Origin: an uncultured Chloroflexia bacterium
Lineage (GTDB): Bacteria; Chloroflexota; Chloroflexia; QHBQ01; JADMIH01
Reading direction: 5' to 3'
Length of the DNA: 64,000 nt
Assembly: GCA_963797095.1 (NCBI GenBank)
Contig: CAWCNY010000006.1
Location: 640,001 to 704,000 of the forward strand
Shown here: positions 12,148 through 62,008 of the stretch, one piece after another
How the letters are laid out: each line of letters starts with the position of its first letter
Numbering within the stretch: the stretch's first letter is position 1
Translations under genes and position numbers: made by a program
Notes under the pieces: model-generated
Seen by the model: only the letters and a program-made list of their open reading frames with translations
Told to the model about the DNA's origin: nothing
Databases searched by the model: none

Positions 12148-12186
12148 GTTAGTCTGTTGTCGAATACCCGCATGACAACTGACAAC
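12148..12186. repeat. Heptamer inverted-repeat element (GTTGTC/TGACAAC family), short
   Basis: GTTAGTCTGTTGTC ... GACAACTGACAAC. Confidence 0.5.
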
Positions 12187-12212
12187 TCGTACACACGGAG
12201 GAATAACGGCAA

Positions 12213-12683
12213 ATGCCACGACGAGGTAGATTTGACAAGCACCCGCTCCTGCCCGATGCCCGCTACAACAGCCTGATGGTATCCAGATTCATCAACAAGC
12301 TGATGGTAAGGGGCAAGAAGGGTCTGGCCGAGAGCATTTTGTACGGAACAATCGATGAGCTTGAGCGCCGCGCCAAGCGGCCCGGCTTAGAAGTGTTCGA
12401 GCAGGCTCTGCGCAATGCCACCCCCGTGATCGAGGTCAAGCCTCGCCGCGTCGGTGGTGCGACTTACCAGGTGCCGGTCGAGATCAAGGGCGACCGTCGC
12501 CAGTCGCTCGCCATCAGGTGGATCCTCGCCGCCGCCCGCAAGCGTTCGGGCAGAAGCATGGTAGACCGCCTCTCAGCCGAACTGATGGACGCCTCCAATA
12601 ATGTGGGCACCACCATCAAGAAGAGGGAAGATACCCACAGGATGGCCGAAGCCAACAGGGCTTTCGCCCACTACAGGTTCTAA
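12213..12683 (+). CDS. rpsG: 30S ribosomal protein S7
   Basis: [23 protein letters not shown]. Confidence 0.99.
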
Positions 12684-12710
12684 CGAGCAACCAGAACAGC
12701 CTGACAAAGC

Positions 12711-12746
12711 AGAGAGGCGAGTTCCGAAGAACCCGCCTCTCTTGTT
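12711..12746. terminator. Terminator between convergent rpsG and Uma2 gene
   Basis: AGAGAGGCG ... CGCCTCTCT followed by TGTT. Confidence 0.7.
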
Positions 12747-12759
12747 GTGTACTGGCTTG

Positions 12760-13377
12760 CTACTCTGCGTCTAGTACCTCGCCTATACCAACAGAGAACC
12801 CATCCAAGAGTACCGAAGTGGCCATGTCGCCCCGGCGATAGACACCATGTTCGGCATATACGCCATCTGCCAGTGATAGGATTGCGCACGTCTCGGTCGT
12901 TGGATTGACAATCCAGTATTCAGGGATGAGGGCTTTGGCGTAATCTCGTCGCTTTTCTGTGATGTCACGCTCGGGGTTGTCGGGGCTGACTACCTCGATT
13001 ACCAGGTCGGCTCCCAGCCAGTAGGCGTTTTGCCGCCGGGTATCTCTACTGTCGAATAACACTAGAAGGTCCGGTTCCCGAAATCTATCCTCATAGACCC
13101 TGAGCCGGAGAGGCGCAACTCTTACGATCCCGCCTCGCGATTGCAGCAACGAATGTAGTGCGTAGAGCAGAAATTGCACGATCGCTTGATGGTGATCAGT
13201 GGGCATGGATAACACCTCGAGATTGCCGGCGGTGAATTCAATCATCTTGTTGGTGTGATTTGTAAGGCGCAAGTACTGCTCTGTAGTCCAGGTGCCTTGA
13301 ATCTCATCGAGATCGGCGATAATCTCGCCGGCACCATCAACTACTTTGAGAGTTTGAGATCGTGCTGTAGCAACCAT
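12760..13377 (-). CDS. Uma2 (DUF820) PD-(D/E)xK endonuclease family protein
   Basis: REPDLLV, ADLVIEVVSP, KRRDYA...IPEYWIVNP. Confidence 0.9.
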   Translation of the reverse strand: MVATARSQTLKVVDGAGEIIADLDEIQGTWTTEQYLRLTNHTNKMIEFTAGNLEVLSMPTDHHQAIVQFLLYALHSLLQSRGGIVRVAPLRLRVYEDRFREPDLLVLFDSRDTRRQNAYWLGADLVIEVVSPDNPERDITEKRRDYAKALIPEYWIVNPTTETCAILSLADGVYAEHGVYRRGDMATSVLLDGFSVGIGEVLDAE

Positions 13378-13553
13378 TGTGAGTTCTCCGCAGGGAATTG
13401 ATGAAGCAAAATCACATTGCTGAATCGTTCACTTGTGAGTATATCACCAGCCCATTACCCGCCGCAAACAGGCAAGCGCAACATCCGCAAATGTGGTATA
13501 ATTGTTGAGATTGCCACAAAATCAGAGCTTTATATAAGCATGGAGGGAAAGAA

Positions 13554-15629
<2,076 letters not shown>

Positions 15630-15662
15630 GTTCAGCGCTCAATGCCCAATTAGATATGAAAG

Positions 15663-15700
15663 AAGAAGACCAGGTACTGTGCACAGTACCTGGTCTTCTT
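15663..15700. terminator. Perfect 38-bp palindrome, probable terminator after fusA
   Basis: AAGAAGACCAGGTACTGTG|CACAGTACCTGGTCTTCTT. Confidence 0.7.
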
Positions 15701-15793
15701 GCATTATGCTGTAGTAAGCCCATATGGGCGCGGTAAACGCCTCGGACCTTGGGCTGGCGCGCCGTATCATAGCATCCAAGCGCTGACCGTTCT

Positions 15794-16282
15794 CTACCCC
15801 AATATTAGCGCCGCCCATCGCCGCACTATATCATGGTGCACTTCCCAGGCATCCCAGGCCGATCCACCCCATTTCCATACCGCCTTCGTATGTTCATCAC
15901 TATTTCGAGCGGCATAAACATCCATCACGGTGATATCTCCACGCGATGTAGGCGGCTCCAACCAGAAATATCTGACCCTCGACTCCATAGCCCAAGTAGG
16001 TACCATCGATGCTTGCACGGGCGGAAATCCACGCTCCAACATCAAGTAAAGCCGTATCAGATGCGCAGCTATGGCATTGATGGTTTGGGTAGAAGGGCTG
16101 CCAGGGTGTTGCACTGCATAAGCATCAACGGTAACTCGATAGGCCTGGCGGTACACGGGGTCTCTGTACTGCCTGGCCATCACATCGCCATAGGTGACCC
16201 AACAACCGGGTGAAGTATCCAAATATGTGTGTACCATGCCCGCGATATCGGGCACTTGCGCTCCACATCCAATACAGAGCAC
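15794..16282 (-). CDS. Conserved hypothetical protein (DUF5946-like)
   Basis: CIGCG...SPGCW...VDAYAVQHPG...HLIRL; start approximate. Confidence 0.65.
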   Translation of the reverse strand: MLCIGCGAQVPDIAGMVHTYLDTSPGCWVTYGDVMARQYRDPVYRQAYRVTVDAYAVQHPGSPSTQTINAIAAHLIRLYLMLERGFPPVQASMVPTWAMESRVRYFWLEPPTSRGDITVMDVYAARNSDEHTKAVWKWGGSAWDAWEVHHDIVRRWAALILG

Positions 16283-16470
16283 TCGCTTTGCCGTCCCTTC
16301 CGTGATCTTCCTCCTCTAGTTAATGTGGTCCTCTATCCGATTGCATACACAAGCAACCAGTTAGCTATGAATTGGGAGGCTGTTCACAGTTGAAGCTGGG
16401 CACGCTAAATTTCCACAGGACAACACTGTGCCATTCTCTCTAAACACGTACACGGTTCTTCCAACAACCG

Positions 16471-16704
16471 TCAAGAATACTCGGTACCGTCTCTATCTAT
16501 GACGCCCGGTACTTGCAGAGGACTGCTGTAAAATCGCGCCATAAACTCACAATGCTGTAGAGAAGTGGGGCCTTTGTGCCATGCTTCTTCGAGCTGCTTG
16601 CATAAGCGCTCCGCATCTTCACGGGTTCTGAGGCCCGGATAGCTGCCCCAGTTACCCCATACATACCTTGGCTCATCACGCTCAAATATGACCCACATAG
16701 CCAT
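16471..16704 (-). CDS. Small hypothetical protein (possibly truncated)
   Basis: ATG with GGAAGGG upstream; AT-richer region. Confidence 0.4.
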   Translation of the reverse strand: MAMWVIFERDEPRYVWGNWGSYPGLRTREDAERLCKQLEEAWHKGPTSLQHCEFMARFYSSPLQVPGVIDRDGTEYS

Positions 16705-16977
16705 CCCTTCCGCTTTTGGACTAGAACATGTAAGTTGTTGGCACTTGATGACGGATTGGACTTGTTATAGTGGAGTCCGTGCTTGTAAATAGCAATTTGT
16801 ATTCTTTAGTAGCGTAGAACTCTATACACCATCTCCAGGGTTCTATTACTAATTCCTGACTGATACATAGAATAGCATATTAACATTCCAAAATCAATAG
16901 GCATAACAGCGCTTCGAACTCTTTCTTGGGCCTGCAAGCTCTCACTCTAGAGAATATGCAGATCGCTTGCAACACGC

Positions 16978-17006
16978 TTGACACCCGCCCCTATTTCCTA
17001 TATACT
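16978..17006 (+). promoter_or_regulatory. S10 operon promoter
   Basis: TTGACA-N17-TATACT. Confidence 0.85.
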
Positions 17007-17070
17007 TATGTACTGTGCGCTTTTATGCGATGTAATAGGAAAGGGCCAGGAAAATAAAAATCAAATAAGA

Positions 17071-17194
17071 GGCGTATAACGCACGCGGGCGCGTGTGGTT
17101 ACCCTTCAAAGGTGACTACGAAAAAAGTATGGGCTCTGTTTCCATACGCCGTGCGCGGTGCGCTCAAGCGTCAGAAACAGAGCCCTTTTTGTTT
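17071..17194 (+). promoter_or_regulatory. Candidate S10 leader attenuator
   Basis: GGGCTCTGTTTC/GAAACAGAGCCC stem plus TTTTT; competing GGCGTAT/ATACGCC pairing. Confidence 0.6.
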
Positions 17195-17234
17195 GTCTTG
17201 AAGATGAAGGTCGAAAAGCAAACTACCAGGCGCG

Positions 17235-17259
17235 AATACGCAGTAAGCAGTACGCAATA
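17235..17259. repeat. Heptamer repeat, single arm (AGTACGC family)
   Basis: AATACGC AGTAAGC AGTACGC AATA. Confidence 0.6.
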
Positions 17260-17284
17260 GTACTAACTTAACAAAGGAAGATAA

Positions 17285-17593
17285 ATGGCTACCAAGCAGA
17301 AGATTCGTATAAGGCTCAAAGCGTTTGACCACAGAATTCTTGACCAGTCGGCGCAGCAGATCGTGGAGACAGCTGAGCGCACAGGTGCACTGGTGGCAGG
17401 TCCGGTACCTCTACCCACCAAGATCGAAAAGTACTCCGTCATTCGCGGTCCTTTCATCGACAAGGACTCGCAAGAGCAGTTCGAGATCCGCACCCACAAA
17501 CGTCTCATCGACATTCTGGAGCCAACCCAGAAGACGATCAACGCCCTCATGCGGCTCAACCTGCCCGCAGGCGTAGACGTCGAGATCAAGTAG
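17285..17593 (+). CDS. rpsJ: 30S ribosomal protein S10
   Basis: [27 protein letters not shown]. Confidence 0.99.
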
Positions 17594-17655
17594 ACGAAAG
17601 ACAACAGACGAACGAGGAAGGAATTGCATTCGTCCACCGTCGTCAGTCCTTCGTC
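17593..17655. repeat. Heptamer inverted-repeat element (GACGAAN/NTTCGTC)
   Basis: GACGAAA GACAACA GACGAAC GAGGAAG ... ATTCGTC CACCGTC GTCAGTC CTTCGTC. Confidence 0.8.
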
Positions 17656-17750
17656 ATAATAGGGAATCTTGCCTCGGCATCTCGAAGCCGCATGTACCGG
17701 CGATGTGCGCTCGGTAAGGCAAGCGAAACTCCATAGGAGCAAGTACCGAA

Positions 17751-18386
17751 ATGATAAAGGCAATTTTAGGTAGAAAACTGGGCATGACCCAGGTATTTGA
17801 AGCGGCAGGCATCGCCACCGGGGTAACGGTGATCGAGGCCGGGCCTTGCGTTGTCACGCAGGTAAAGACCCCTGAGAAGGATGGCTACACAGGCGTGCAA
17901 CTTGGCTGGGGTGATGTTCGCGAGAACCGCCTCACCAAGTCCGAGCGCGGCCACCTTCGTAAGAAGAAGCTACCCCTGGTACGCCACCTGCGCGAAGTGT
18001 CGGTCGACCCCAACGGCGAGCTTCCTAAGCGTGGATCGCGCATCGATGTGACGATGTTCCAGGAAGGCGATTTCGTGGACGTTATCGGCACCAGCAAAGG
18101 CAAGGGTTTCGCGGGCGTAATGAAGCGCCACAACTTTCGTGGTGGCCCCCGCACACACGGCCAATCTGACCGCTCTCGCCGCCCCGGCTCCATCGGCCCC
18201 GGCTCCACGCCAGGCCGTGTGTTCAAGGGCACCCGCATGGCGGGCCGTATGGGCAACTCCCGCGTTACGGTTCAGAACCTGCGCATAGTTTCTGTCGATC
18301 CGGATCGCAATCTCCTGCTGGTCAAGGGCGCTGTCCCCGGCCCCACCGAGGGAATGTTGATCGTTCGCAAGGCAATAAAGAAGTAG
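17751..18386 (+). CDS. rplC: 50S ribosomal protein L3
   Basis: [25 protein letters not shown]. Confidence 0.99.
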
Positions 18387-18449
18387 CTGGCAGCATAGTA
18401 GTCAGTAGTCAGATGTTTTTCCGATTACCGACTACCTACCACCGACTAC
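18383..18449. repeat. Heptamer inverted-repeat element (GTAGTCR/CGACTAC)
   Basis: AGTAGTC AGTAGTC ... CGATTAC CGACTAC CTACCAC CGACTAC. Confidence 0.8.
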
Positions 18450-18473
18450 TTACGACGTAAGGAGTAATTAGAA

Positions 18474-19673
18474 GTGCAAGCGACAATATACAACCTGGCC
18501 GGGGAAGAGGTAGAGAAGGTTGATCTGCCTGATGCCATCTTCGGCATCGAGCCGAACGAGGGGGTTATCCATCAGGCGGTTCTCCGCCAACAGGCCAACG
18601 CCCGCCGTGGTACCCACGACACCAAGACCCGCGCCTACGTGAGCGGCGGCGGCAAGAAGCCCTGGCGTCAGAAGGGCACCGGGCGTGCTCGCCAGGGTTC
18701 CACCCGCTCTCCGCAGTGGCGGCATGGTGGCGTAGTATTCGGCCCCCACCCCCGCTCGTACGAGCAGGATATGCCCCGCAAGATGCGCCGCCTCGCTATT
18801 CGCAGCGTTCTCTCAGGCAAGATGGCCGATGGTCAGATCGTTCTTGTGGACAGCTTCCAAACCCTGGAGCCTCGTACAAAGGCTATGATCGCGGCCCTCA
18901 ACAGCCTGAATATAGGCGACAAGAAAGCCCTAATTTTCACTACTGGTGGGGAAAGCACACTTCGCCAGGCTGCCGGCAATCTGCCAAACATCAAGATGCA
19001 GAGCGCCCACCTCCTGAGTGTGGTGGACATGCTCACCCACGATTTTGTGGTTCTCCCTAAGGATGCACTCGATGTGGTGACAGGCATACTCGGCAACACG
19101 GGTGGTCGCGCTAAGCTGACGCTGAGGGCGGTTACTGCCCCGAGGACCAATGGCAAGGCCACGGAGCCTGCCAGAGTCGTTGAAGTCGCCAAGCCCAAGC
19201 CCGATGTGAAGGCCGAAGTAGCGGCGGTTGAGGAAGCGAAAGAGACGAAGGCCGAGAGCAAGCCCCGAACATCGCGTCGCAAGAGCGAGCCTGAGACATC
19301 AGCGACCGAGACCCCGGCCCCATCGATTGCAGCGGGCAAGGTGGTCATCGCAACAGTCCATTATCAGGGCGAGGAATATGTTCAACTCAGAAACGACAAT
19401 GACCTGCCCGTGGATTTAAGCGGCTGGACGCTCCGCGACAAGAATGAAGAATCGCAGAGTATGACCTTCCCGGATGGTACCGAGCTAAAGCCAGGCTCGA
19501 CCCTCAGAGTCTTTACAGAGCCGGGCCACAAACTCACATTCGATAGCAAGCGTCCCATCTGGAACGATGAAGGCGATATAGCTGCACTGTTGAACCCGGC
19601 AGGCGAGGAAGTGTCCACCTTCGCCTACGGCAAATACGCCGAGGAAAGCGAAGGCGAAGGGAGCGAGAAATAA
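18474..19673 (+). CDS. rplD: 50S ribosomal protein L4 with C-terminal lamin-tail-like (LTD) domain
   Basis: L4 motifs KPWRQKGTGRARQG, GGVVFGP (aa 1-~207); linker; EYVQLRN...VDLSGWTLRD...FP.GT.L.PG...IWNDEGD..ALLNPAGEEVS. Confidence 0.93.
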   Translation: MQATIYNLAGEEVEKVDLPDAIFGIEPNEGVIHQAVLRQQANARRGTHDTKTRAYVSGGGKKPWRQKGTGRARQGSTRSPQWRHGGVVFGPHPRSYEQDMPRKMRRLAIRSVLSGKMADGQIVLVDSFQTLEPRTKAMIAALNSLNIGDKKALIFTTGGESTLRQAAGNLPNIKMQSAHLLSVVDMLTHDFVVLPKDALDVVTGILGNTGGRAKLTLRAVTAPRTNGKATEPARVVEVAKPKPDVKAEVAAVEEAKETKAESKPRTSRRKSEPETSATETPAPSIAAGKVVIATVHYQGEEYVQLRNDNDLPVDLSGWTLRDKNEESQSMTFPDGTELKPGSTLRVFTEPGHKLTFDSKRPIWNDEGDIAALLNPAGEEVSTFAYGKYAEESEGEGSEK

Positions 19674-19963
19674 TGCCTCATATGTATGAAGTCTTGCGCC
19701 GTCCCATTATGACAGAGCGCAACACAGAACTGATGATGCAAGGCCGCTACACATTTGAGGTAGCGCCCGATGCGAACAAAATACAGATCAAAGAGGCGGT
19801 CGAGAAGGCCTTCGACGTAACGGTATTGGCGGTCAACACGCTCAACGTTCACGCCAAAGCTCGCCGCCAGCGTACCCGCCTGCGCGGTCACAAACCGGGC
19901 TGGAAGAAAGCAATCGTAACATTGGCCCCCGGCCAGAGGATCGAGATATTCGAAGGCGTCTGA
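19673..19963 (+). CDS. rplW: 50S ribosomal protein L23
   Basis: RPIMTE, ANKIQIKEAVE, WKKAIVTL; TAATG overlap with rplD. Confidence 0.98.
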   Translation: MPHMYEVLRRPIMTERNTELMMQGRYTFEVAPDANKIQIKEAVEKAFDVTVLAVNTLNVHAKARRQRTRLRGHKPGWKKAIVTLAPGQRIEIFEGV

Positions 19964-19966
19964 GCC

Positions 19967-20038
19967 ATTTTGGGTTTTAGATCTCGGATAGCGGATTGAT
20001 CCCCTAAATCCGAAATCTAAAATCCGGAATCCAAAATC
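19967..20038. repeat. Heptamer inverted-repeat element (GATTTTG/CAAAATC)
   Basis: ATTTTGG GTTTTAG ATCTCGG ATAGCGG ... CGAAATC TAAAATC CGGAATC CAAAATC. Confidence 0.85.
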
Positions 20039-20048
20039 GGAGAGAATT

Positions 20049-20903
20049 ATGCCAGTAAGAAAGTACAACCCAACCTCCCCTGGCCGCAGGATCATGAGCG
20101 TGGCGACTTTCGAGGAAATCACCAAGAAGAAGCCCGAGAAATCGCTGATCGTTGCTCAGAAGAAGTCCGGTGGGCGCAACAACACCGGGCGCATCACAAC
20201 CCGGCATCGCGGCGGTGGGCACAAGCATCACTACCGCATCATCGACTTCAAGCGCAACAAGTACAACATCCCCGGCAAGGTGGCGGCGGTCGAGTACGAC
20301 CCCAACCGCTCGGCCCGGATTGCCCTTGTCAATTACGCCGATGGCGAGAAGCGCTATATACTTATGCCAATTGGCCTCAAGGTAGGCGACACGATCATGT
20401 CGGGCGATAACGCCGATGTGCGTGTGGGCAACACCCTGCCTCTCCGCCGTATCCCACTCGGCACGCAGATCCACAATGTTGAGCTGCATATCGGCAAGGG
20501 CGGCCAGTTGGTGCGCAGCGCGGGCGGCGTGGCCCAACTTATGGCCCGCGACGACAAATACGCCCAGGTGCGCCTCCCGTCCGGTGAGGTGCGCATGATC
20601 CACGTGAACTGCATGGCTACCATAGGCCAGGTGGGCAACGTGGAGCACGAGAATATCCGAATCGGCAAGGCCGGGCGCAAGCGCTGGTTGGGCAGGCGTC
20701 CCGAAGTGCGTGGGGCAGCCATGAACCCGGTCGATCACCCGCACGGTGGTGGCGAGGGCCGAGCACCACGCGGTGGGCAGCCTCAGACCAAGTGGGGCAA
20801 GCCCGCACAGGGCTACCGCACCCGCAACAACAAGCGGACCGACAAATTTATCATACGTGGCCGACGCCGTGGGCCTCAGGCCGCAGGCAAGGGGCAGAGA
20901 TAG
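20049..20903 (+). CDS. rplB: 50S ribosomal protein L2
   Basis: [21 protein letters not shown]. Confidence 0.99.
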
Positions 20904-20957
20904 TTCCAAGTTGCTGGTTCCTGATAAGTTACTCACCGGTAACTAGAACCAGCACCT
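20902..20957. repeat. Heptamer inverted-repeat element (GGTTCCT/AACCAG family)
   Basis: AGTTCCA AGTTGCT GGTTCCT ... AACTAG AACCAGC. Confidence 0.55.
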
Positions 20958-20972
20958 TCCAGAGGAGAAAAG

Positions 20973-21257
20973 ATGACACGTTCAGCTAAGAAGGGGCCTT
21001 TCGTAGACCATAACCTTGAGGAAAAGATCCTCAGGATGAACCAGCGGAATGAGAAGCGCGTGATCAAGACCTGGGCGCGTGCCAGCACCATCACCCCCGA
21101 CATGGTGGGCCACACACTAGGTGTGCACGACGGCAGGCGTCATATCCCCATCTATGTGACCGAGAACATGGTCGGTCACAAACTGGGCGAGTTTGCACTA
21201 ACCCGCTTCTACAAAGGCCACGGGGCCAAGACCGAGAAGGCCACGCGCTTGAAATAG
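20973..21257 (+). CDS. rpsS: 30S ribosomal protein S19
   Basis: [19 protein letters not shown]. Confidence 0.99.
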
Positions 21258-21304
21258 GGGGTCGGCAGGGGAGAGTCCCTGCACGGGGTGTGGGGTGTCC
21301 CCAC
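21257..21304 (+). repeat. G-rich double-hairpin intergenic repeat, copy 1
   Basis: GCAGGGGAGAGTCCCTGC then GTGGGGTGTCCCCAC; similar to 27457-27504. Confidence 0.6.
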
Positions 21305-21335
21305 TCTCTACCTCTACAGAGGAGATGAACAAAGA

Positions 21336-21674
21336 ATGGAAGTACGAGCAGTAGCCAAGCATATTCGCCGGTCACCCCGCAAGATTCGCCTTGTGATGGA
21401 TGCCGTGCGCGGTAAGAGCGTTGACGAGGCAGTCGCCATCCTGCGATTCCTTCCGCATACCAGCGCCGACGAAATCCTGAAAGTAATCAGGAGCGCAGCG
21501 GCCAACGCCGAAAACAATTATCAGATGGCTCCCGAAGACCTCTTCATCAAGGCCATCTACGCGGACGAGGGCCCGACCATCAAGCGCTTCCGCGCCCGCT
21601 CACGCGGTATGGCCGCCCCCATCCTCAAGCGGACCAGCCATATTACAGTTGTTGTAGAAGAGAGAGAATACTAG
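21336..21674 (+). CDS. rplV: 50S ribosomal protein L22
   Basis: SPRKIRLV, SAAANAENN, KRTSHITVVV; start ATG 21336. Confidence 0.98.
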   Translation: MEVRAVAKHIRRSPRKIRLVMDAVRGKSVDEAVAILRFLPHTSADEILKVIRSAAANAENNYQMAPEDLFIKAIYADEGPTIKRFRARSRGMAAPILKRTSHITVVVEEREY

Positions 21675-21678
21675 TAGA

Positions 21679-21748
21679 ATTATGGATTTCCGATTGCGGA
21701 TTTGCCATACTAAATCCGAAATCTAAGATCCGAAATCCGCAATCCGAA
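21679..21748. repeat. Heptamer inverted-repeat element (GATTTTG/CAAAATC family)
   Basis: ATTATGG ATTTCCG ATTGCGG ... CGAAATC TAAGATC CGAAATC CGCAATC. Confidence 0.85.
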
Positions 21749-21759
21749 CAGGGGGAACC

Positions 21760-22620
21760 ATGGGACGAAAGGTCCATCCAACATCATTCAGGCTCGGCAT
21801 TATCCGAGATTGGCAATCTCGCTGGTACGCCGACCGCAACTATACCGACATGCTCCACGAGGATGTGCGCATTCGCGCCCTTGTGAATAAGAGACTATCG
21901 AACGCTTCTCTGTCCAGCATCGAGATCCAGCGTTCGGCCAACCAGCTTGACGTTACCCTTCACACAGCCAAACCGGGCGTTGTGATCGGCAAAGGCGGCC
22001 AGGCTGTTGACCAGCTTCGCAAAGACCTCGAAACGATGACGGGCAAGAAGGTCAAGCTCAATATTGAAGAGATCAAGCAGCCCGAGCTTGATGCCTATCT
22101 GGTAGCCGAGAGCATCGCCGAGCAGATCACCCGCCGCGTGTCATACAAGCGTGCCCTCAAGCAGGCTGTACTTCGCTCGACTCGTGCCGGGGCCAAAGGC
22201 GTCAAGATTCGCATCTCAGGCCGCCTCGGTGGCGCTGAAATGGCCCGCTCCGTGTGGGAGCGCGAAGGCCGCGTGCCTCTGCACACCATCCGCGCCGACA
22301 TCGACTACGGGCAGGTGCACGCCCACACAACCTATGGCCGCATCGGCGTCAAAGTGTGGATTTACAAGGGCGAAGTCATCCAGCGCAAAGGTGGCGACTC
22401 CCTGCTTGAGGTGGACCGCCCGCTGGCAACAGCCGCCCCGCGCCCTGAGCGCCGCGAACGACGCGAGCGCGATGACCGTGGCGGGCGCGGCGGAGGACGT
22501 GGCGGGGAGCGTGGAGATCGAGGAGATCGCGGCGAGCGCGCCCCTCGTGCCCCTCGAGCCGAAGCCCCTCAGACTGGTACGGCCTCCGGCGGCGAGATGG
22601 GCTCGTCCAACGAAGCGTGA
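21760..22620 (+). CDS. rpsC: 30S ribosomal protein S3 with Arg/Gly-rich tail
   Basis: [31 protein letters not shown]. Confidence 0.99.
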
Positions 22621-22635
22621 TTGGAGTAATTAGCT

Positions 22636-23097
22636 ATGTTGATGCCTAAGAGAGTAAAACATCGCAAGCAGCATCGCGGCACCACCGGGGGCGGCGTGGC
22701 ACAGCGCGGCACCGAAGTTACATTCGGTGAGTTCGGCTTGCAGGCCCTCGAAACCGCCTGGATCGACAGCCGCCAGATCGAGGCTGCCCGCCGTGCCATC
22801 ACAGGTCACATCAAGCGCGGTGGCAAGGTCTGGATTCGCATCTTCCCGGACAAGAGCATGAGCGCCAAACCCGCCGAGACCCGCATGGGCTCCGGCAAGG
22901 GTGCTCCCGACCATTGGGTCGCTGTCATCAAGCCGGGCCGCGTGATGTTTGAAGTGTCGGGCGTGCGCGAGGATGTGGCAGCCGAAGCCATGCGCAAAGC
23001 AGGTCATAAGCTCCCTATTAAGACGCGCTTCGTGAAGCGCCAGGCCGAAGGCCAGGCAGTACCGGAGCCGCAAGCGGAGCCGGAGGACGAGGAGTAG
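22636..23097 (+). CDS. rplP: 50S ribosomal protein L16 (short acidic tail)
   Basis: [24 protein letters not shown]. Confidence 0.99.
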
Positions 23098-23102
23098 ACC
23101 AT

Positions 23103-23408: not shown

Positions 23409-23474
23409 GACCGACGATAGACGAACGACTATGGGCGGGAAGCAAAACTTCCCCTCCATCTTCCGTCCTTCGTC
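23401..23474. repeat. Heptamer inverted-repeat element (GACGA family)
   Basis: GACGATA..GACGATA GACGAAC GACTATG ... CTCCATC TTCCGTC CTTCGTC. Confidence 0.75.
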
Positions 23475-51234: not shown

Positions 51235-51759
51235 ATGACCATCAGGCGAGAGAAAAAACGTTCGCAGGCCGCGCCGATCAACCGGCGATCGGGTGCAACA
51301 CGCGCTCGTCGCAGCGGCAACGGCGCGCGCTCTGTGCTGTCCGTGGTCCCGCGCAGCGTTACCGAGGCTACAGGGCAGGCGGCGCGCCGTTCGGTCGACC
51401 GCCTGCGCCCCTCTTTGCCCCGGTGGATAGATCCCCACCCCGGCATCGCCCTTCTCGTCGCTGCCGCCATCATCGCCGCCGTCTGCTTCTTCTATGTATC
51501 GCAGGTAACCAACGTCAGCAACGCCAACTACCGCCTGCAAGACCTCAAGAACCAGTACGCCACCCTCCAGCGCCAGCAGGACGAACTGCGCCTCCAGATC
51601 GCCCAGGCCCAATCCCTCACCACTATAGCCGACAAGGCAGCCCATAAGCTCCAGATGGTGCCCATAGACGACCACTACAGCTACCTGCCCCTGCCCGATG
51701 GTCCCCTTGCCAGCCTTCCACCTCAACCCACGCCTGCACTCCCCACACCGGGGCCGTAG
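51235..51759 (+). CDS. ftsL: Cell division protein FtsL-like
   Basis: Basic N-terminus, one TM, coiled coil; position between rsmH and the PBP gene. Confidence 0.75.
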   Translation: MTIRREKKRSQAAPINRRSGATRARRSGNGARSVLSVVPRSVTEATGQAARRSVDRLRPSLPRWIDPHPGIALLVAAAIIAAVCFFYVSQVTNVSNANYRLQDLKNQYATLQRQQDELRLQIAQAQSLTTIADKAAHKLQMVPIDDHYSYLPLPDGPLASLPPQPTPALPTPGP

Positions 51760-51830
51760 TCGGTAGTCGGAAACTCGTCACTGGTCACTGGTCACTGGTC
51801 ACTGGTCACTCGTCATCATCGTCTTTCGTC
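51756..51830. repeat. Mosaic heptamer array
   Basis: (GTAGTCG)x2; (GTCACTG)x4 GTCACTC; ..TTTCGTC. Confidence 0.88.
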
Positions 51831-53674: not shown

Positions 53675-53837
53675 AGCGTGAAACGTGAAACGTAATACGT
53701 GAATGGCTCCGATACCTCCCTTGATAGCGTTGCCAGTTTACCCCTGATCCGTTATGCTTTTATGTGGCCCGCAAATAAGGGCTAATCAAGAATCACATCC
53801 AACTCGCTACTCGTCGCTCGTCGCTCGTCACTCGCCA
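53675..53837. repeat. Heptamer arms flanking a ~90-nt core
   Basis: AGCGTGA AACGTGA AACGTAA TACGTGA ... CAACTCG CTACTCG TCGCTCG TCGCTCG TCACTCG. Confidence 0.8.
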
Positions 53838-55242: not shown

Positions 55243-56466
55243 TTGAATCACTATTTCTCCCTGCTGACAATTGCGAACAACACCTTTTCTATAGTCCATT
55301 CGTTGGGCTTTGCCGCCGCCCCTGATCCCGCGCCCGCCGGGCATTGGCTTGATCTATTATCGAATATCACCGCCCAGACGTTGCCAACGCCCACAGTAGG
55401 TATCGCACCAGCCGACCCCATAACCTCTACCGGCACTATCAACGCGGTGGCCTCTGTGACAGGTGTCAAGAAAGAGATACCCCCTCTTCAGCCGATCAAA
55501 ATGGTGCGCGGCCTCACCCTTGGCGCTGTGGCTTTTCTGCTGGGTGTAACCGTTGGCAGGCCGGTGATCAACTGGCTCCGCGACAGGGGCATAGGCAAGC
55601 ACATCAGGATCGAAGGCCCCGCCAGCCACCAGGTGAAGACAGGCACCCCCACCATGGGAGGTATGATCTTCCTGATCCCCCTTGTGATCGTGATCGCCGT
55701 CTTCATGGATATTCTCTCCTTCAACTCGTTACTCCTCCCGCTCGGCATCGTGGTGTCGTGCGGTATACTCGGCGCGATAGACGACCTCATGAGCACCGTA
55801 GGGCGCAACAGGGGCGGTATGAAGGCGCGCTTCAAGATGGCCTGGTTGGTGGCGATAAGCACCATCGCAGCGTGCATCCTCTACTTCCTGCTCGGCCACG
55901 ACACGATCCTGCTGCCTTTCCTGACCCCGCCGCCCATACCCATCGGCCTCTTTTATATTCCTATCGCGGTATTCCTGATAGCGGGCACAGCCAATGCAGT
56001 GAACTTCACCGATGGCCTCAACTCGCTGGCGGGAGGCACCACCGCTATCGCGTTCGTGTCCTACGGCATCATCGCCTACCTGCAAAAGCAGGAACCCATC
56101 GTTTACCTCTGCTTTGCCGCCGTGGGCGCGCTGCTGGCCTTCCTCTGGTTCAACGCCCACCCCGCGATGGTCATCATGGGCGATGCAGGCGCCCTCACCC
56201 TGGGTGCGCTGCTGGCGATCTGCGCCCTCATGACCGACCAATGGCTCCTTCTCCCCCTGATCGGCATAGTGTTCGTCGCCGAGACCCTCGCAGTAATTCT
56301 GCAAGTGCTCTACTTCAAGCTGACCGGTGGCAAGCGCCTCTTCAGGATGGCCCCTCTCCATCACCACTTCGAGATGCTCGGCTGGTCTGAAACGCAGGTC
56401 ACCATGCGCTTCTGGATGTTAAGCATGGTGGCCGGGATGCTTGGTGTAGCGCTTGCACTTGTTTGA
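55243..56466 (+). CDS. mraY: Phospho-MurNAc-pentapeptide transferase, copy 1
   Basis: KTGTPTMGG, IDD, NFTDGLN, MGDAG, PLHHHFE; start uncertain (TTG 55243 or ATG 55501). Confidence 0.92.
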   Translation: MNHYFSLLTIANNTFSIVHSLGFAAAPDPAPAGHWLDLLSNITAQTLPTPTVGIAPADPITSTGTINAVASVTGVKKEIPPLQPIKMVRGLTLGAVAFLLGVTVGRPVINWLRDRGIGKHIRIEGPASHQVKTGTPTMGGMIFLIPLVIVIAVFMDILSFNSLLLPLGIVVSCGILGAIDDLMSTVGRNRGGMKARFKMAWLVAISTIAACILYFLLGHDTILLPFLTPPPIPIGLFYIPIAVFLIAGTANAVNFTDGLNSLAGGTTAIAFVSYGIIAYLQKQEPIVYLCFAAVGALLAFLWFNAHPAMVIMGDAGALTLGALLAICALMTDQWLLLPLIGIVFVAETLAVILQVLYFKLTGGKRLFRMAPLHHHFEMLGWSETQVTMRFWMLSMVAGMLGVALALV

Positions 56467-56497
56467 TCCGAATTCTCAAGAAGGCTAAGTTCCTCCA

Positions 56498-57640
56498 TTG
56501 AGCACTTTCCTTGAATTGGCGAATATCGCTGCTAACTTATGTGTGCTCCCTCATGCACACGGGTCGTTGCCGGATCTTGTGGGGGGCGTAAGCGCACAGC
56601 GCGTGATGACACCCACTGTTGTTACTACGGGCACCGGAGGGGCGAGCATCGCAGCAAGCTTACCCCCGATTACAATGGTGCGCGGGTTGACGCTGGCGGC
56701 CGTGGCGTTCTTGTTGGGAGTGCTTGTGGGCAAGCCGGCGATCAATTGGCTGCGCGACCGGGGCATCGGCAAGCATATCAGGATCGAGGGTCCGGCAAGT
56801 CACCAGGTGAAGACGGGCACGCCGACGATGGGGGGCATGATATTCCTGATACCACTTGTGATTGTTATCGCCGTGTTCATGGATTTGCTGACCTTTAAGT
56901 CGCTCTTGCTGCCGCTGGGGATCGTGGTGTCGTGCGGGATACTGGGTGGAGTAGACGACCTGATGAGCATTGCGGGGCGTAACAGGGGCGGGATGAAGGC
57001 ACGCTTCAAAATGGCGTGGCTGCTCGTGATCAGTACTATCGCGGCATGCATACTTTATTTCTTGCTGGAGTATGATGAGTTGAACCTGCCTTTCCTGACC
57101 CCGCCACCAATACATATCGGATTGCTGTTCATTCCCATTGCGATATTCCTTATTTCGGGCATGGCGAACGCGGTCAATTTTACTGATGGGCTGGACTCAC
57201 TGGCGGGCGGGACTACGGCTATCGCTTTTGTGTCATATGGGATTATCGCGTATCTGCAAAAGCAAGAGCCGGTGGTGTATCTGTGTTTCGCTGTGGTGGG
57301 GTCGCTGCTCGGGTTCTTGTGGTTCAATTCGCACCCGGCGATGGTGTTTATGGGGGACGCAGGGGCGCTTACGCTTGGGGCTTTGCTGGCTGTGTGCGCG
57401 CTGATGACGAACCAATGGCTCCTTCTTCCCCTGATCGGCATAATCTTCGTCGCCGAGACCCTCGCCGTAATTCTGCAAGTGCTCTACTTCAAATTGACGG
57501 GTGGCAAACGTCTGTTGAAGATGTCGCCGCTGCACAACCATTTCGTGGAACTGGGCTGGTCTGAAACGCAAATAACCATGCGCTTCTGGATGGTAAGCAT
57601 GGTAGCGGGCATGCTAGGCGTCGCCCTCGCCCTCGTATGA
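56498..57640 (+). CDS. mraY: Phospho-MurNAc-pentapeptide transferase, copy 2
   Basis: KTGTPTMGG, VDD, NFTDGLD, FMGDAG, PLHNHFV; start uncertain. Confidence 0.92.
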   Translation: MSTFLELANIAANLCVLPHAHGSLPDLVGGVSAQRVMTPTVVTTGTGGASIAASLPPITMVRGLTLAAVAFLLGVLVGKPAINWLRDRGIGKHIRIEGPASHQVKTGTPTMGGMIFLIPLVIVIAVFMDLLTFKSLLLPLGIVVSCGILGGVDDLMSIAGRNRGGMKARFKMAWLLVISTIAACILYFLLEYDELNLPFLTPPPIHIGLLFIPIAIFLISGMANAVNFTDGLDSLAGGTTAIAFVSYGIIAYLQKQEPVVYLCFAVVGSLLGFLWFNSHPAMVFMGDAGALTLGALLAVCALMTNQWLLLPLIGIIFVAETLAVILQVLYFKLTGGKRLLKMSPLHNHFVELGWSETQITMRFWMVSMVAGMLGVALALV

Positions 57641-58125
57641 TTTTGGATTTTAGATCTCCGATTTTGGATTTGAGGTAATTGGTGAACGAGAAAGAATTCA
57701 AAATCTGTACTAAACGTTTTGCTATTGAGGCAATTCGTTGCGTGCAAGACCTGCCGAGAGACGAAACTGCTGACATAATTGGTAGACAATTATTGCGGTG
57801 TGCTACGTCTGTGGGAGCAAACTATCGAGCTGCATGCCGGGCGAAATCTACACCGGGTATGGTTGCGAAACTTGCGATTGTTGAAGAAGAAGCAGACGAG
57901 AGCTTATATTGGTTGGAATTGTTGGTGGAAGCCGACATTGTTCCTGCTACAAAGCTAACTGACATCATGGCTGAAGCTAATGAGATTACAGCCATGGTTG
58001 TAGCATCAATCAGAACCTTGCGTACCCAAAAGAGCAGGTAATATCCTCCAGCCAATCTCGACTTTACGCGCAAGACGATGGACAGAGAAGAAAGATCCAA
58101 AATCCAAAATCCAAAATCCAAAGTC
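57639..58125. mobile_element. Putative 'full' heptamer-arm element carrying a four-helix-bundle gene
   Basis: Left arm GATTTTG-type x5 (57639-57673), gene, right arm CAAAATC-type x4 (58094-58125). Confidence 0.65.
57679..58041 (+). CDS. Four helix bundle protein (23S rRNA intervening-sequence protein family)
   Basis: IGRQLLRCATSVGANYRAACRAKS...KLAIVEEEADESLYWLELL...EANEI; AT-richer than neighbours; start TTG 57679 or GTG 57682. Confidence 0.9.
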   Translation: MVNEKEFKICTKRFAIEAIRCVQDLPRDETADIIGRQLLRCATSVGANYRAACRAKSTPGMVAKLAIVEEEADESLYWLELLVEADIVPATKLTDIMAEANEITAMVVASIRTLRTQKSR

Positions 58126-60073: not shown

Positions 60074-60084
60074 CAACCAAGCTT

Positions 60085-61239
60085 ATGAGCACTCGCGCCC
60101 GCAGATTTGATCGCCCCGATTACTGGATACTGGCCGTCGTCGGTATCCTCTGTATCATCGGCGTCCTCATGGTCTTTTCCTCCAGCGGGATCGACCAGGA
60201 GAACAGCAACCTCATCACCAAGCATATCTTCTCGCTGGGCGTCGGTATGGTCGCCATGTTCATAACCATGAGTGTGCCCTACCAGCGCCTTCGCAGGTTC
60301 TCGGTGCCTCTCCTCGTCTTCAGCGCCGTCCTCCTGATGGTGGTGTACGTGATAGCCGAGCCTGTCAACGGTGCCAAGCGCTGGCTCGACCTCGGGATTA
60401 CCACCTTCCAACCCTCGGAGCTGGTCAAGTTCGCGCTTGTCCTCTACCTGGCCGATTGGTGCTACAGCAAGGGCGAGCAGGTGCGCGATCTCTCCAACGG
60501 GCTTGTGCCCTTCGGAATCGTGCTGGGATTCCTGGGTGGCCTCGTCTTCATCGAACCTGACATGGGCACCATGCTCGTTATCTTCGCAATCGGAGTCACC
60601 ATGTACTTCGTGGCGGGTGCCGCCATCCCGCACCTGCTGGGAGGTTTCGTCCTGGCGGCGGCGGGTTTTGTACTGGCTGCCCTCGCCGAGCCATACAGGT
60701 TCGCCCGCATCCTCTCCTTCCTCGACCCCTACAATCCCGCCGAGGAGTTGGGCACCAACTACCACATATTCCAATCGTTGATCACCCTCGGTTCGGGTGG
60801 CCTCACAGGCCAGGGCCTGGGCGCATCACGCGGCAAGTACGGCTGGCTCCCTGAGCAGTCCACCGATGCCATCTTTTCCGTTTGGGGGCAAGAGGTCGGC
60901 TTCCTGGGGGCCATGCTCCTGATCAGCCTCTTCATCGTCCTGGCCTGGCGCGGCTTCCGCGTGGCACGCCTCGCCCCCGACGGTTTTACCGCCTTGCTGT
61001 CGGCAGGGCTTACCACCTGGGTAATAGCCCAGGCGATGATCAATATAGGCGCGGTCAGTGGCGCGATCCCCTTCACGGGCGTGCCCCTCCCCTTCGTGAG
61101 TTACGGAGGCTCCTCCCTGATAATCACCCTGTCAGGCGTCGGTCTCCTGCTCAACTTGAGTCGCTACGCAACCTCCGAGCGCACAGCCCCCGCAACGTCC
61201 GGACTAAGAGTATTGAGGCTAGATAGAAGCAACACGTAA
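60085..61239 (+). CDS. ftsW: SEDS protein FtsW
   Basis: NGAKRW, FQPSELVK, EPDMGT, LPEQSTD, PFTGVPLPFVSYGGSS. Confidence 0.96.
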   Translation: MSTRARRFDRPDYWILAVVGILCIIGVLMVFSSSGIDQENSNLITKHIFSLGVGMVAMFITMSVPYQRLRRFSVPLLVFSAVLLMVVYVIAEPVNGAKRWLDLGITTFQPSELVKFALVLYLADWCYSKGEQVRDLSNGLVPFGIVLGFLGGLVFIEPDMGTMLVIFAIGVTMYFVAGAAIPHLLGGFVLAAAGFVLAALAEPYRFARILSFLDPYNPAEELGTNYHIFQSLITLGSGGLTGQGLGASRGKYGWLPEQSTDAIFSVWGQEVGFLGAMLLISLFIVLAWRGFRVARLAPDGFTALLSAGLTTWVIAQAMINIGAVSGAIPFTGVPLPFVSYGGSSLIITLSGVGLLLNLSRYATSERTAPATSGLRVLRLDRSNT

Positions 61240-61240
61240 C

Positions 61241-61337
61241 CACTGCATACTACATATTGCTTAGTACCAGGGCATGTTAGCATCAGCATAAACTGTGCTT
61301 TGACGCAAGATGCAGTACGCAGTGCGGAGTACGCAAT
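61241..61337. repeat. Heptamer inverted-repeat element (TACTGC/GCAGTA)
   Basis: CACTGC ATACTAC ATATTGC TTAGTAC ... AGTACGC AGTGCGG AGTACGC AAT. Confidence 0.75.
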
Positions 61338-61343
61338 AAAGGC

Positions 61344-61952
61344 ATGGTAATTACTCTCGAATGGTGGCAATGGGTGCTTCCGGCGGTGTTCCTGGCCGTG
61401 GTGGCCGGGCTTTACATGGGCTGGAAGATCATGGGCCTGTGGACTATCGGGGTTTTCTTCAGCGGCCTGGTGGCTGCCAAGCTTGGGCCAAAGCTCGACC
61501 TGCTGCTCAGTAAGCTGTTGAGCGTCATGGGCCAGTTCGCCGCTATCGCCACCGACAAGCCCGAAGACACGATCACCACGCCCAAAATCGAGATCGCTTC
61601 CCCCTGGGAGCCGGTGGCGACCGCGGCGCTTTTTATCTCGCTGGTGATTTTCTCGTGGTGGGTGGCTCGCAAGCTGGCATCTCGCTCAGGTGGCCTTATC
61701 GACAGCCTGATCGGTGGGGTCTTCGGTGCGTTGGCCTCCGTGCTTGCTTTATCGCAGGCGTTCGACTACTGGGCCGATTTCGTCCAGCGGAGCGGCACCA
61801 ACCCCACCAGTGCCACCCCACAAATATCGATTGGAGTGGCCGCCCTTCCATCCACCAACCCGCTTGTCGGCATGGCGACGGTGGCCCTCGGCCTTTTCCT
61901 GCTGATCGTAATCGTGTACACTATCTGGCGGGCGGCAAAAGCAGCCCTCTAG
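61344..61952 (+). CDS. Multi-pass membrane protein (CvpA-like)
   Basis: About five hydrophobic segments; IDSLIGGVFG resembles the CvpA-family D..LG..FG motif. Confidence 0.55.
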   Translation: MVITLEWWQWVLPAVFLAVVAGLYMGWKIMGLWTIGVFFSGLVAAKLGPKLDLLLSKLLSVMGQFAAIATDKPEDTITTPKIEIASPWEPVATAALFISLVIFSWWVARKLASRSGGLIDSLIGGVFGALASVLALSQAFDYWADFVQRSGTNPTSATPQISIGVAALPSTNPLVGMATVALGLFLLIVIVYTIWRAAKAAL

Positions 61953-61954
61953 AG

Positions 61955-62008
61955 AATGCGGAATGCCAATATCATTCCTGACTTAGAACTCCGCATTCCG
62001 CATTCCAC
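61955..62008. repeat. Heptamer inverted-repeat element (AATGCGG/CCGCATT)
   Basis: AATGCGG AATGCC ... ACTCCGC ATTCCGC ATTCCAC just before the murC ATG. Confidence 0.75.

Follow-up and report, generated by a model that had tools for sequence, protein, structure and literature searches.

Palindromic heptamer-repeat inserts as the probable occupants of gene junctions in essential operons of a Chloroflexia bacterium

Introduction

In a 64,000-nt stretch of DNA from an uncultured Chloroflexia bacterium (hereafter the window; G000:C6:640001-704000, on contig CAWCNY010000006.1 of assembly GCA_963797095.1), many spacers between consecutive genes of the ribosomal, cell-shape and cell-division operons are filled by hairpins whose arms consist of tandem 7-nt units, or heptamers. 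The question raised by this locus is what these hairpins are and why they fit so closely between the stop codon of one gene and the Shine-Dalgarno (SD) word of the next. The initial annotation, based on the letters of the window alone, had proposed that the stem brings stop and SD back together and so preserves translational coupling, or that it marks sites of mRNA processing. We consider it probable, if well short of certain, that the spacers are filled by lineage-amplified palindromic heptamer-repeat inserts, of the same kind as the short tandemly repeated repetitive (STRR) sequences of cyanobacteria and the intervening sequences (IVS) of 23S rRNA.

To our knowledge, STRR heptamers and rRNA IVS have been recognised for decades without agreement on their origin or function, and we know of no role for the widespread PF05635 protein family outside diversity-generating retroelements (DGRs). 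STRR sequences are tandem heptamers originally defined in heterocystous cyanobacteria (Mazel 1990; Jackman and Mulligan 1995; Vioque 1997). As kinds of sequence, both heptamer repeats and IVS are already known. As far as our literature search shows, what is new is the presence in Chloroflexota of heptamer inserts that nearly saturate the junctions of essential operons, the measured polarity and turnover of these inserts, and the link, found across phyla, that joins heptamer arms to IVS and to PF05635; the search returned no report of such repeats in Chloroflexota, and supplementary repeat tables, which lay outside it, could bear on this novelty.

The assembly comprises 6.02 Mb in 8 contigs with 58% G+C and is 93% complete. 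Its ribosomal protein L6 is 73-74% identical to that of the nearest named records, metagenome-assembled genomes (MAGs) labelled 'Chloroflexia bacterium'; genomes G016, G021, G022 and G032 appear only in a separate tally of L6 and carry no claim. The bacterium lives in soil, and a search for sequencing runs listed three soil-metagenome DNA runs, the best with a 0.17 share of words, and no RNA run.

Heptamer-armed hairpins fill many co-directional spacers of the window

Tandem Repeats Finder applied to the window returned 72 rows, 38 of which have period 7 (hand count). Spacers of 25-300 nt were scored by lag-7 autocorrelation, with 40 dinucleotide shuffles of each spacer as the control and a cut-off of z at least 2.5, by minimum free energy (MFE; cut-off z of -2 or lower) and by a gapped stem score (cut-off at least 10). 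An ungapped hairpin finder at a score of at least 13 gave 10 matches in the window and was too strict, and gapped stems and fold z-scores were used instead. Of 41 co-directional spacers between 17593 and 61344, 29 pass the period-7 cut-off, which bears out the claim that most non-overlapping junctions carry the pattern; 18 of the 41 combine period 7 with the fold cut-off, and 16 also reach the gapped stem score. Six hairpins were refolded against 200 shuffles each, and their stems have stabilities of -30 to -59 kcal/mol. Five of them lie at z -4.6 to -9.5, with none of 200 shuffles as stable, and the sixth (rpsQ-rplN, refolded over 23815-23895) reaches only z -1.7, a stability matched by 10 of its 200 shuffles. 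The window thus holds about 18-22 clear hairpins among its 29 period-7 spacers. The phenomenon is real and far beyond chance, and the figure of about 40 hairpins given in the initial annotation, although hairpins are present where it placed them, is an over-count. STRR-like heptamers are indeed packed as inverted arms between stop codon and SD. An Rfam scan of the window at gathering thresholds returned one tRNA only, and the hairpins are covered by no known RNA family.

Among the 29 period-7 spacers, 23 have a best stem whose first base falls -2 to +5 nt from the end of the stop codon, and 13 have an SD-like word 0-5 nt beyond the right arm (both hand counts); the four joints between arm and SD quoted in the initial annotation are all found in the sequence. 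The essential operons of the window are moreover enriched, with an array in 18 of 40 spacers compared with 19.8% genome-wide (binomial p=2.7e-4). The upstream part, said to be free of the pattern over its first 11 kb, is nearly so, one of its seven folded spacers reaching a lag-7 z of at least 2.5. Such a layout would be expected of selected cis-elements, in which the stem either joins stop and SD for re-initiation or sets boundaries of processing or stability between cistrons. Both the close fit and the enrichment speak for this explanation, which we nevertheless regard as unlikely, although deserving of some weight. A palindrome inserted into a short ancestral spacer would produce the same stop-to-SD layout, and would do so more simply than coupling.

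The stability of the stems could also suggest intrinsic terminators or attenuators that tune read-through within the operons. The right arms meet SD words, not T-runs, and a scan of positions 17000-36999 with a terminator consensus found 23 sites, as compared with 19.6 +/- 4.6 in shuffled sequence, only two of them on the plus strand and neither at a hairpin. The statement that terminators do not explain the layout is upheld, and we give this explanation almost no credence.

Period-7 arrays are in excess genome-wide and have a fixed polarity

Period 7 accounts for 1380 arrays across the whole genome, whereas periods 5, 8, 10, 11 and 13 yield 190-222 each; a genome-wide scan of this kind had been suggested in the initial annotation. 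Intergenic DNA holds 1045 of the 1380, compared with 69-99 arrays at the same other periods. Under stricter settings the numbers are 541 at period 7, 17 at period 8 and 61 at period 6, and inverted pairs of arrays number 104 at period 7 and 0-1 at periods 6, 8, 9, 10 and 11. Co-directional spacers are the richest, with 1.53 arrays per kb compared with 0.93 in convergent and 0.56 in divergent spacers; this density, too, counts in favour of selected cis-elements. The proportions of spacers with an array are 505/2547 (19.8%), 75/508 (14.8%) and 96/671 (14.3%), respectively. The reported lack of hairpins at convergent junctions is therefore a local feature of the window, and the occurrence of arrays in convergent and divergent spacers, as well as in the coding sequence of murT and in 23S rRNA (see below), is difficult to reconcile with elements selected for a role between cistrons. 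The arms are more complementary than the control: an ungapped inverted partner scoring at least 10 accompanies 317 of the 1380 arrays, and 37 in the reversed-sequence control. Similarly, strong gapped stems occur in 28.5% of 375 array-bearing spacers and in 11.4% of 440 without arrays, and a fold z below -2 in 34.9% of 375 array-bearing co-directional spacers and 23.2% of 375 without.

The arms are not interchangeable. In 85 of the 104 inverted pairs the left arm is G-rich, in 7 it is C-rich and in 12 neutral, and every family has its G-rich orientation at the stop codon and its complement near the start codon, with a median distance to the stop of 1 nt in the two largest families. A palindrome has the same reading on either strand, and the polarity is therefore one of the element and not of the gene strand. 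Among 324 mismatched columns of 107 strong stems the sense strand shows G.T 93 times and A.C 99 times. Selection for pairing in mRNA should favour G.U, which is not in excess, and the symmetry of the mismatches fits an origin at the level of DNA. A further property that could be expected of selected elements, a stop codon supplied in all three frames by the 7-nt period, is found in about 8 of 17 stop-proximal families (hand count; for example GTAGTCG and GTGACGA). This share is not clearly above the expectation for C-poor heptamers, and we make no claim of it.

The arrays fall into 271 canonical units, of which the top five account for 185, 148, 68, 61 and 55 arrays. That a few families dominate hundreds of loci, and that the dominant set is specific to the genome, is not what one would expect of purely local repeats, in which slippage makes the arrays, template switching in quasi-palindromes keeps the arms complementary and PF05635 genes insert into the loops. 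The strand-symmetric mismatches are expected of such a DNA-level process, and strains of Coxiella burnetii vary in heptamer copy number (PMC4990558); slippage alone, however, does not predict the fixed order of G-rich left and C-rich right arms. Arrays of the CGACTAC unit longer than 100 nt, visible as ladders of BLAST matches, lie at G000:C2:749187-749301 and C2:93136-93284.

We also considered repetitive extragenic palindromic (REP) sequences, together with bacterial interspersed mosaic elements (BIMEs) and paired REPs (REPINs), mobilised by a REP-associated tyrosine transposase (RAYT) of the Y1 HUH type. Like the hairpins described here, these are small palindromes of lineage-specific number. 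They reside in transcribed extragenic DNA where the adjoining genes are co-directional or convergent, and are regarded as selfish elements that affect mRNA stability only secondarily. The genome contains four Y1_Tnp genes, and the two largest units contain GTAG or CGTC, which PMC3733652 gives as tags of the REP superfamilies. These tags are absent from most of the 271 units, and the arms are tandem 7-mers in variable number and of many unrelated families, which does not readily suggest one consensus palindrome of 20-40 bp. A link to RAYT was rejected, since the 2.5 kb around each of the four Y1_Tnp genes is free of heptamer arrays, in keeping with the earlier remark that REPs do not explain the layout, and mobilisation of this type is in our view very improbable.

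Hairpins are gained, lost and replaced among close relatives

Three related MAGs, with ribosomal proteins 75-78% identical to those of the window, carry heptamer hairpins of 80-150 nt at equivalent junctions, built from other heptamers, and the gene junctions that overlap in the window overlap in all three as well. Sites empty of an insert measure 1-16 nt, for example 6 nt at rplW-rplB in L001, 6 nt at rplO-secY in L002/G009 and 16 nt at rplC-rplD in L003. Units differ from genome to genome, one unit may dominate an operon (L001), and interiors vary among junctions that share identical arms.

A wider survey covered 18 further loci of the order, each with 18-19 kb of ribosomal protein operon. 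The number of arrays per locus ranges from 1 (G010) to 44 (G007) among congeners, is 4-8 in one genus of family f2 and 1-4 in family f3, and falls to 0 in the class-level outgroup. Ribosomal protein spacers are 1-30 nt long in f3 and the outgroup, and long and non-periodic in G010 and part of f2. Altogether, hairpins occupy equivalent junctions in at least nine related genomes. This sharing supports selected cis-elements, and the same operon in congener G010 and in family f3, which lacks hairpin arrays, counts against them. In the heptamer-poor loci L106 (G010), L098 (G025) and L102 (G033) we observed long structured ribosomal protein spacers with periods of 4, 6 and 8 nt and G+C-rich hairpins.

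The closest relative, G017 (88% identity), allows a comparison of 13 junctions, which by eye show the same heptamer family at three, a non-heptamer hairpin retained at one and differences at about eight. At rplX-rplE the hairpin is a different one, the leader flanking it downstream being conserved. At rplP-rpmC G017 has a 95-nt hairpin where the genome of the window has 5 nt and seven other congeners have 0-5 nt. Gain, loss and replacement in place characterise inserted, fast-turning elements, and by these comparisons all three occur, at shared sites, among close relatives. The swapping of heptamer families between such relatives is an argument against selected cis-elements; a complete hairpin arising de novo in a 5-nt spacer, and a family replaced in place between conserved flanks, argue in turn against repeats that grow only locally.

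The same architecture occurs in 23S rRNA and in murT

Both 23S rRNA genes contain a hairpin of about 110 nt, with (GATTTTG) and (CAAAATC) arms and a fold z of -4.6. It is placed in a hairpin loop, that of the helix located at Rfam LSU positions 1206-1228. We take this site to be helix 45, going by the 23S numbering, a like position in the Azospirillum gene and the abstract on Coxiella. The insert shares the architecture of an rRNA IVS, as known from helix 45 and helix 25, where the end of a 23S helix is taken up by an extended stem-loop. Descriptions of IVS concern rRNA, whereas here the architecture also occupies dozens of mRNA spacers and a coding sequence. PMC4990558 describes a helix-45 IVS in Coxiella burnetii in which an S23p open reading frame (ORF) follows 2-3 heptamers in tandem, the first of which is the site of cleavage by RNase III. 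Genes for RNase III and for Rho are both found in the genome studied here. The coding sequence concerned is that of murT, where two arrays of different families, (GACGAAC)n and (ATCCAAA)n, lie in frame at 46668-46764 on the plus strand and encode a linker of about 33 residues, situated after the family match, which ends at residue 350.

PF05635 genes are often enclosed by inverted heptamer arrays

One spacer of the window holds a gene. Between mraY2 and murD, at 57639-58125 on the plus strand, a (GATTTTG)n array (57639-57671) and a (CAAAATC)n array (58092-58125) enclose a PF05635 gene (23S rRNA IVS protein, or S23p; 57679-58041; 120 codons, E 9.7e-15). The genome has just one further PF05635 copy, bordered by (GCCGGTA)4.7 and (ACCGGCT)4.4. 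An automated flank test, which asks for a gene between inverted, unit-matched heptamer arrays, was applied to 33 PF05635 loci. In total 22 of the 33 pass, compared with a background of 14 of the 4906 genes of this genome. Both copies here are flanked (2/2), the window copy being unlisted by the automated pairing, with its two arrays taken from the repeat listings. In five congeners 15 of 18 loci are flanked, the units matching at 7/7 positions in eleven and at 6/7 in four. Of 13 loci from six more distant genomes, 5 meet the test and two further ones do so by eye, the flanked hosts including a Selenomonadales MAG (3/3 counting the visual case), Dialister and Brevefilum.

The association extends to cyanobacteria. 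A tblastn search of 72,556 plasmids gave 36 PF05635 records, among them 17 from Nostoc, 4 from Calothrix and 2 from Trichormus, genera that we take to be classical STRR hosts. Inverted heptamer flanks are present at five of eight inspected loci (Calothrix brevissima, Anabaena sp. 90, Nostoc punctiforme, Geminocystis and Azospirillum lipoferum); at the remaining three, Picosynechococcus has inverted arms of about 8-nt period, PCC 7120 has one arm and Gemmatirosa a direct 8-mer. In the Azospirillum lipoferum copy, the heptamer arms and the PF05635 ORF lie inside the 23S rRNA gene. Each of the six cyanobacterial copies with annotation points the same way as the genes on its two sides, and two of the six are located within cas operons. 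In L139 (Anabaena sp. 90 pANA02) and L143 (a Picosynechococcus sp. PCC 7003 plasmid), four-helix-bundle, PF05635-like genes were seen between cas6/cas4 and cas10/cmr3.

In a tree of the 33 PF05635 proteins, sisters carry arm units that are identical or differ by 1-2 nt. This includes sister pairs without similarity in their flanks, namely the window copy and a G009 copy (support 100/98, 60% identity), which have the same arm heptamer at non-syntenic loci, as well as two G009 paralogues and the pair from G007 and G041. That PF05635 clades track their arm heptamers at non-syntenic loci is a further point against purely local repeats. In G009, G007 and G041, the commonest units among ORF-less inserts of the ribosomal operon match the arms of a resident PF05635 copy. 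As a separate observation, a syntenic site is held in L109 and in L114, L115 and L135 by PF05635 genes of two clades, which suggests repeated insertion or replacement.

PF05635 is the only recurrent cargo that we found. Ordinary genes make up the rest of the flanked set (MBL hydrolase, AlkZ-related, ROK, glyoxalase, PNPOx, EF-Ts, L10 and one HNH endonuclease), and inverted pairs more than 250 nt apart are no commoner than direct pairs. Of the 14 flanked genes just one other is potentially mobile, the HNH endonuclease gene (189 aa; G000:C2:1273738-1274307), which lies between inverted arrays of the same family. Across 46 genomes, PF05635 was present in 3 of 5 with heptamer-rich ribosomal protein loci and in 3 of the other 41 (Fisher p=0.012), a modest association weakened by MAG incompleteness and by the use of a proxy measure.

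PF05635 is reported to resemble Avd, the accessory protein of DGRs, in sequence and structure (PMC10053308). The second copy in this genome gives a weak match to the bAvd model. The two copies are not part of a DGR as judged by their neighbours, which are mraY/murD and a CoA-transferase gene, with no reverse transcriptase and no template or variable repeats beside them; DGRs were looked for at these two loci only.

A model of insertion, and what weighs against it

We propose that the hairpins would arise from elements with a common plan, a G-rich tandem 7-mer array followed by a unique interior and a complementary C-rich array. Full-length versions would enclose a gene of the PF05635 (S23p / Avd-like four-helix-bundle) family, and the spacer hairpins would be ORF-less versions. 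The inserts would settle immediately 3' of stop codons, in ancestral spacers of about 5-25 nt, and may persist in transcribed, promoter-free spacers because their RNA folds on itself. By analogy with the stems of IVS, the near-perfect stems of 20-26 bp would be cut by RNase III, and such cuts would split the polycistronic mRNA at the joints between genes. The inserts are probably selfish and probably substrates of RNase III, and in view of the excision of rRNA IVS by this enzyme, the suggestion that the hairpins are sites of mRNA processing is plausible. Any benefit, such as translational coupling, stability of mRNA segments, frame-independent stops or escape from the loading of Rho onto an exposed C-rich arm, would be secondary and hypothetical.

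Several observations weigh against insertion, or fit it poorly. Most arrays of the genome have no detectable partner arm, so hairpins are a minority, although the same abundance of unpartnered arrays is awkward for selected cis-elements as well. In whole-hairpin BLAST searches against the genome with two hairpins, the arms match elsewhere and the interiors never do, a result that lends no support to simple copy-and-paste of entire hairpins; the ORF-less hairpins are not simple copies of each other. No target-site duplication is visible at the rplP-rpmC gain in G017, the sole case inspected. Arms are often unequal in length, for example 24 and 97 nt at L107, and chimeric pairs (53677/53810 and the murT insert) keep the order of G-rich followed by C-rich arm. 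The two largest families here (185 and 148 arrays) are carried by no PF05635 copy in the 93%-complete assembly, the PF05635 search gave no match in the heptamer-bearing genomes G053 and G057, and 11 of the 33 PF05635 loci fail the automated flank test. The sharing of junctions across species could also reflect selection for a stem at these places, and the related genomes are not independent samples. Finally, gene boundaries come from a home-made caller supplemented by hand with four small genes, and distances to start codons are approximate. The unique interiors, together with the single inspected gain, led us to reject a miniature inverted-repeat transposable element as the identity of the hairpins.

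Interiors that are unique beside arms that are common, and arms that are unequal and variable, are what purely local repeats would give; in view of the dominance of a few families, the turnover in place and the PF05635 phylogeny, we judge that explanation improbable. Unequal arms, and chimeric pairs that keep their polarity, suggest that each side of an insert is built or extended separately under a fixed strand polarity. It would be compatible with insertion that PF05635 is the hallmark of one class of palindromic elements with heptamer arms, spread across several phyla, with STRR arrays, 23S IVS and spacer hairpins as their ORF-less relatives, a proposal that we put forward only tentatively. 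Each PF05635 lineage may then recognise its own 7-mer and help to seed or extend arrays. We speculate further that the polarity (on either strand, the G-rich sequence reads 5' to 3' toward the centre), the unique interiors and the unequal or chimeric arms fit an addition of repeats, in the fashion of telomeres, to the two 3' ends of a break, and, equally speculatively, that a reverse transcriptase with an Avd-like protein could add them.

Among known systems, the STRR sequences of heterocystous cyanobacteria are alike in their tandem 7-nt units, their several families, their mostly intergenic or intra-operon location and their occasional inverted arrays, and plasmids of Nostocales show the same layout of array, PF05635 gene and array. 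The present host is, in contrast, a member of the Chloroflexota and its heptamers differ in sequence; near-saturation of ribosomal operon junctions and the fixed order of G-rich left and C-rich right arms were measured here. The TAACTGA heptamers of Beggiatoaceae, cyanobacteria and Bacteroidetes are likewise intergenic, often end just upstream of start codons and have a patchy distribution (PMC4679880). They consist of a single unit in direct repeats, with one inverted case in 170 sets (PMC4679880), whereas we find many units, often as inverted pairs.

Insertion would tie together three strands, since one inverted heptamer architecture serves as the 23S insert, as the enclosure of PF05635 genes and as the filler of junctions. 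The enclosure spans Chloroflexota, Bacillota, Cyanobacteria and one alphaproteobacterium, with counts that can be re-run at scale, and the gene-less architecture fills nearly every free junction of essential operons. For annotation this would mean that spacers in these lineages are to be read as inserts of 70-150 nt and not as regulatory leaders, and that arrays can extend into stop codons, start regions and coding sequence.

Hairpins and arrays along the window

The gene order of the window was confirmed by family searches. It begins with rpsL, rpsG, a minus-strand Uma2 gene and fusA, followed by 1.6 kb holding two minus-strand genes; continues with rpsJ to rplQ, truA, rplM and rpsI, then mreBCD, mrdA and minC, and murT and gatD; and ends with mraZ, rsmH, ftsL, ftsI, murF, two mraY genes, murD, ftsW and a murC-murB fusion. 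The hairpins and arrays described below all lie on the plus strand, and arm units are given as left/right.

In the first part of the ribosomal operon, the rpsJ-rplC hairpin (17593-17655) pairs arms of the GACGAAx/xTTCGTC type at 17593-17619 and 17629-17655, with 20 Watson-Crick pairs in 26 columns, a lag-7 z of 4.3 and an MFE z of -1.9. Hairpins follow at rplC-rplD (18398-18449; AGTAGTC/CGACTAC; MFE z -3.7, lag-7 z 5.8), rplW-rplB (19967-20030; GGATTTx/AAATCCx; MFE z -2.8, lag-7 z 3.7, stem score 14.2), rplB-rpsS (20908-20958), in which the arms are weakly periodic (MFE z -3.4, lag-7 z 3.2), and rplV-rpsC (21688-21748; CGGATTT/AAATCCG; MFE z -2.2, lag-7 z 5.1). The right arm of the rpsQ-rplN hairpin (23819-23887) is (CTTCGTC)5, with 21/24 lag-7 matches and a CAGGAG SD 1 nt after the arm. 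A degenerate hairpin at rplN-rplX (24268-24333) is periodic (lag-7 z 3.7) with a weak fold (MFE z -0.9).

The rplE-rpsN hairpin (25518-25588; GGATTGC/AAATCTA; MFE z -3.1, lag-7 z 6.1) ends its arm on AAGGAG. Next to it, the rpsN-rpsH hairpin (25789-25863; GTACCGA/ACTCAGT type; MFE z -3.4) has a homologous copy in G017, and the families at rpsH-rplF (26313-26389; CGTGATA/TATCACG; lag-7 z 3.9, MFE z -1.3) and rplF-rplR (26967-27046; TTGCGTA/TACGCAA; MFE z -3.9) are common to G017. At rplO-secY (29071-29132), (GTAGTCG)n/(CGACTAC)n arms form 25 of 26 pairs, with -51.4 kcal/mol, z -9.0 and 0/200 shuffles as stable.

Downstream, the infA-rpmJ hairpin (32355-32444) is of the GTGAAxC/TATCACG type (MFE z -2.4, lag-7 z 6.2), and rpmJ-rpsM (32598-32665) consists of a G+C-rich hairpin and then an AAATCCx array (MFE z -4.5, lag-7 z 3.8). 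The rpsM-rpsK hairpin (33047-33130; GACGAAx/ATTCGTC) has z -4.6 with 0/200 shuffles as stable, and rpsD-rpoA (34391-34447; CGTGATx/TCACGTA) has an MFE z of -2.5. At rpoA-rplQ (35828-35886) the stop codon TAG lies within the left arm and the right array is (GACTACC)4; the stem is weak (MFE z -0.9) and lag-7 z is 4.3. The series closes with hairpins at rplQ-truA (36258-36309; GACGAAx/xTTCGTC; z -5.4 to -6.3), truA-rplM (37169-37226; GACGATx/ATCGTCC; MFE z -2.2, lag-7 z 4.4) and rplM-rpsI (37717-37775; MFE z -4.7, lag-7 z 2.8).

In the cell-shape genes, mreB-mreC has a C-rich TCGTCxT array (39712-39737) whose partner is not clear, and mreC-mreD an unpaired ACTGGTC/ACTCACC array (40622-40650). The mrdA-minC hairpin (43370-43476) is the most stable of those refolded, at -59.1 kcal/mol and z -9.5 with 0/200 shuffles as stable; (GTGACGA)4, a 55-nt interior unique within the genome and (TCACTCG)n, which ends on GGAGG, follow one another. 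At murT-gatD (47119-47189), AGTCGGT/CCGACTA arms with an unpaired AACCAGG array in the loop end on CAGGAG (z -6.1, 0/200 shuffles as stable).

In the cell-division genes, an unpaired (AGTGCGG)4 array (50203-50233) fills the 46-nt mraZ-rsmH spacer, and ftsL-ftsI (51756-51815) has (GTAGTCG)2 starting within the stop codon, followed by (ACTGGTC)6. The ftsI-murF spacer (53677-53837) is chimeric, with (CGTGAAA)n at the stop and a non-complementary (CTCGTCG)n before the start. The last hairpin, between ftsW and the next gene (61241-61324), is of the TGCGTAx type (stem score 13.4, lag-7 z 3.1, MFE z -1.3).

Other features of the window

The Uma2-family gene, a putative restriction endonuclease (12760-13377, minus strand), splits the usual str operon between rpsG and fusA. 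The stretch from fusA to rpsJ (15630-17285) is without a tuf gene; it contains a strong terminator hairpin (15663-15700), then DNA of lower G+C with a minus-strand DUF5946 gene (15794-16282) and a 77-aa ORF. Two ribosomal proteins are extended at their C-termini. Protein L4 (18474-19673) has 399 aa, its L4 domain being fused to a C-terminal Lamin Tail Domain (PF00932, residues 285-386, E 1.7e-21), and S3, at 286 aa, carries a long extension at its C-terminus; 9-nt tandem repeats occur within the 3' portion of rpsC (22447-22560). The map-infA spacer has no heptamer signal and contains a near-consensus sigma-70-like promoter at 32047-32075 (TTGACT, 17 nt, TATAAT, TG), which may be an internal promoter. 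The tandem mraY paralogues (55243-57640) encode 407 and 353 aa and both match TIGR00445 over their full length. At the end of the window (61956-64000), murC is apparently fused to murB in a single open frame, with a MurC match at residues 23-468 and a MurB match from residue 530.

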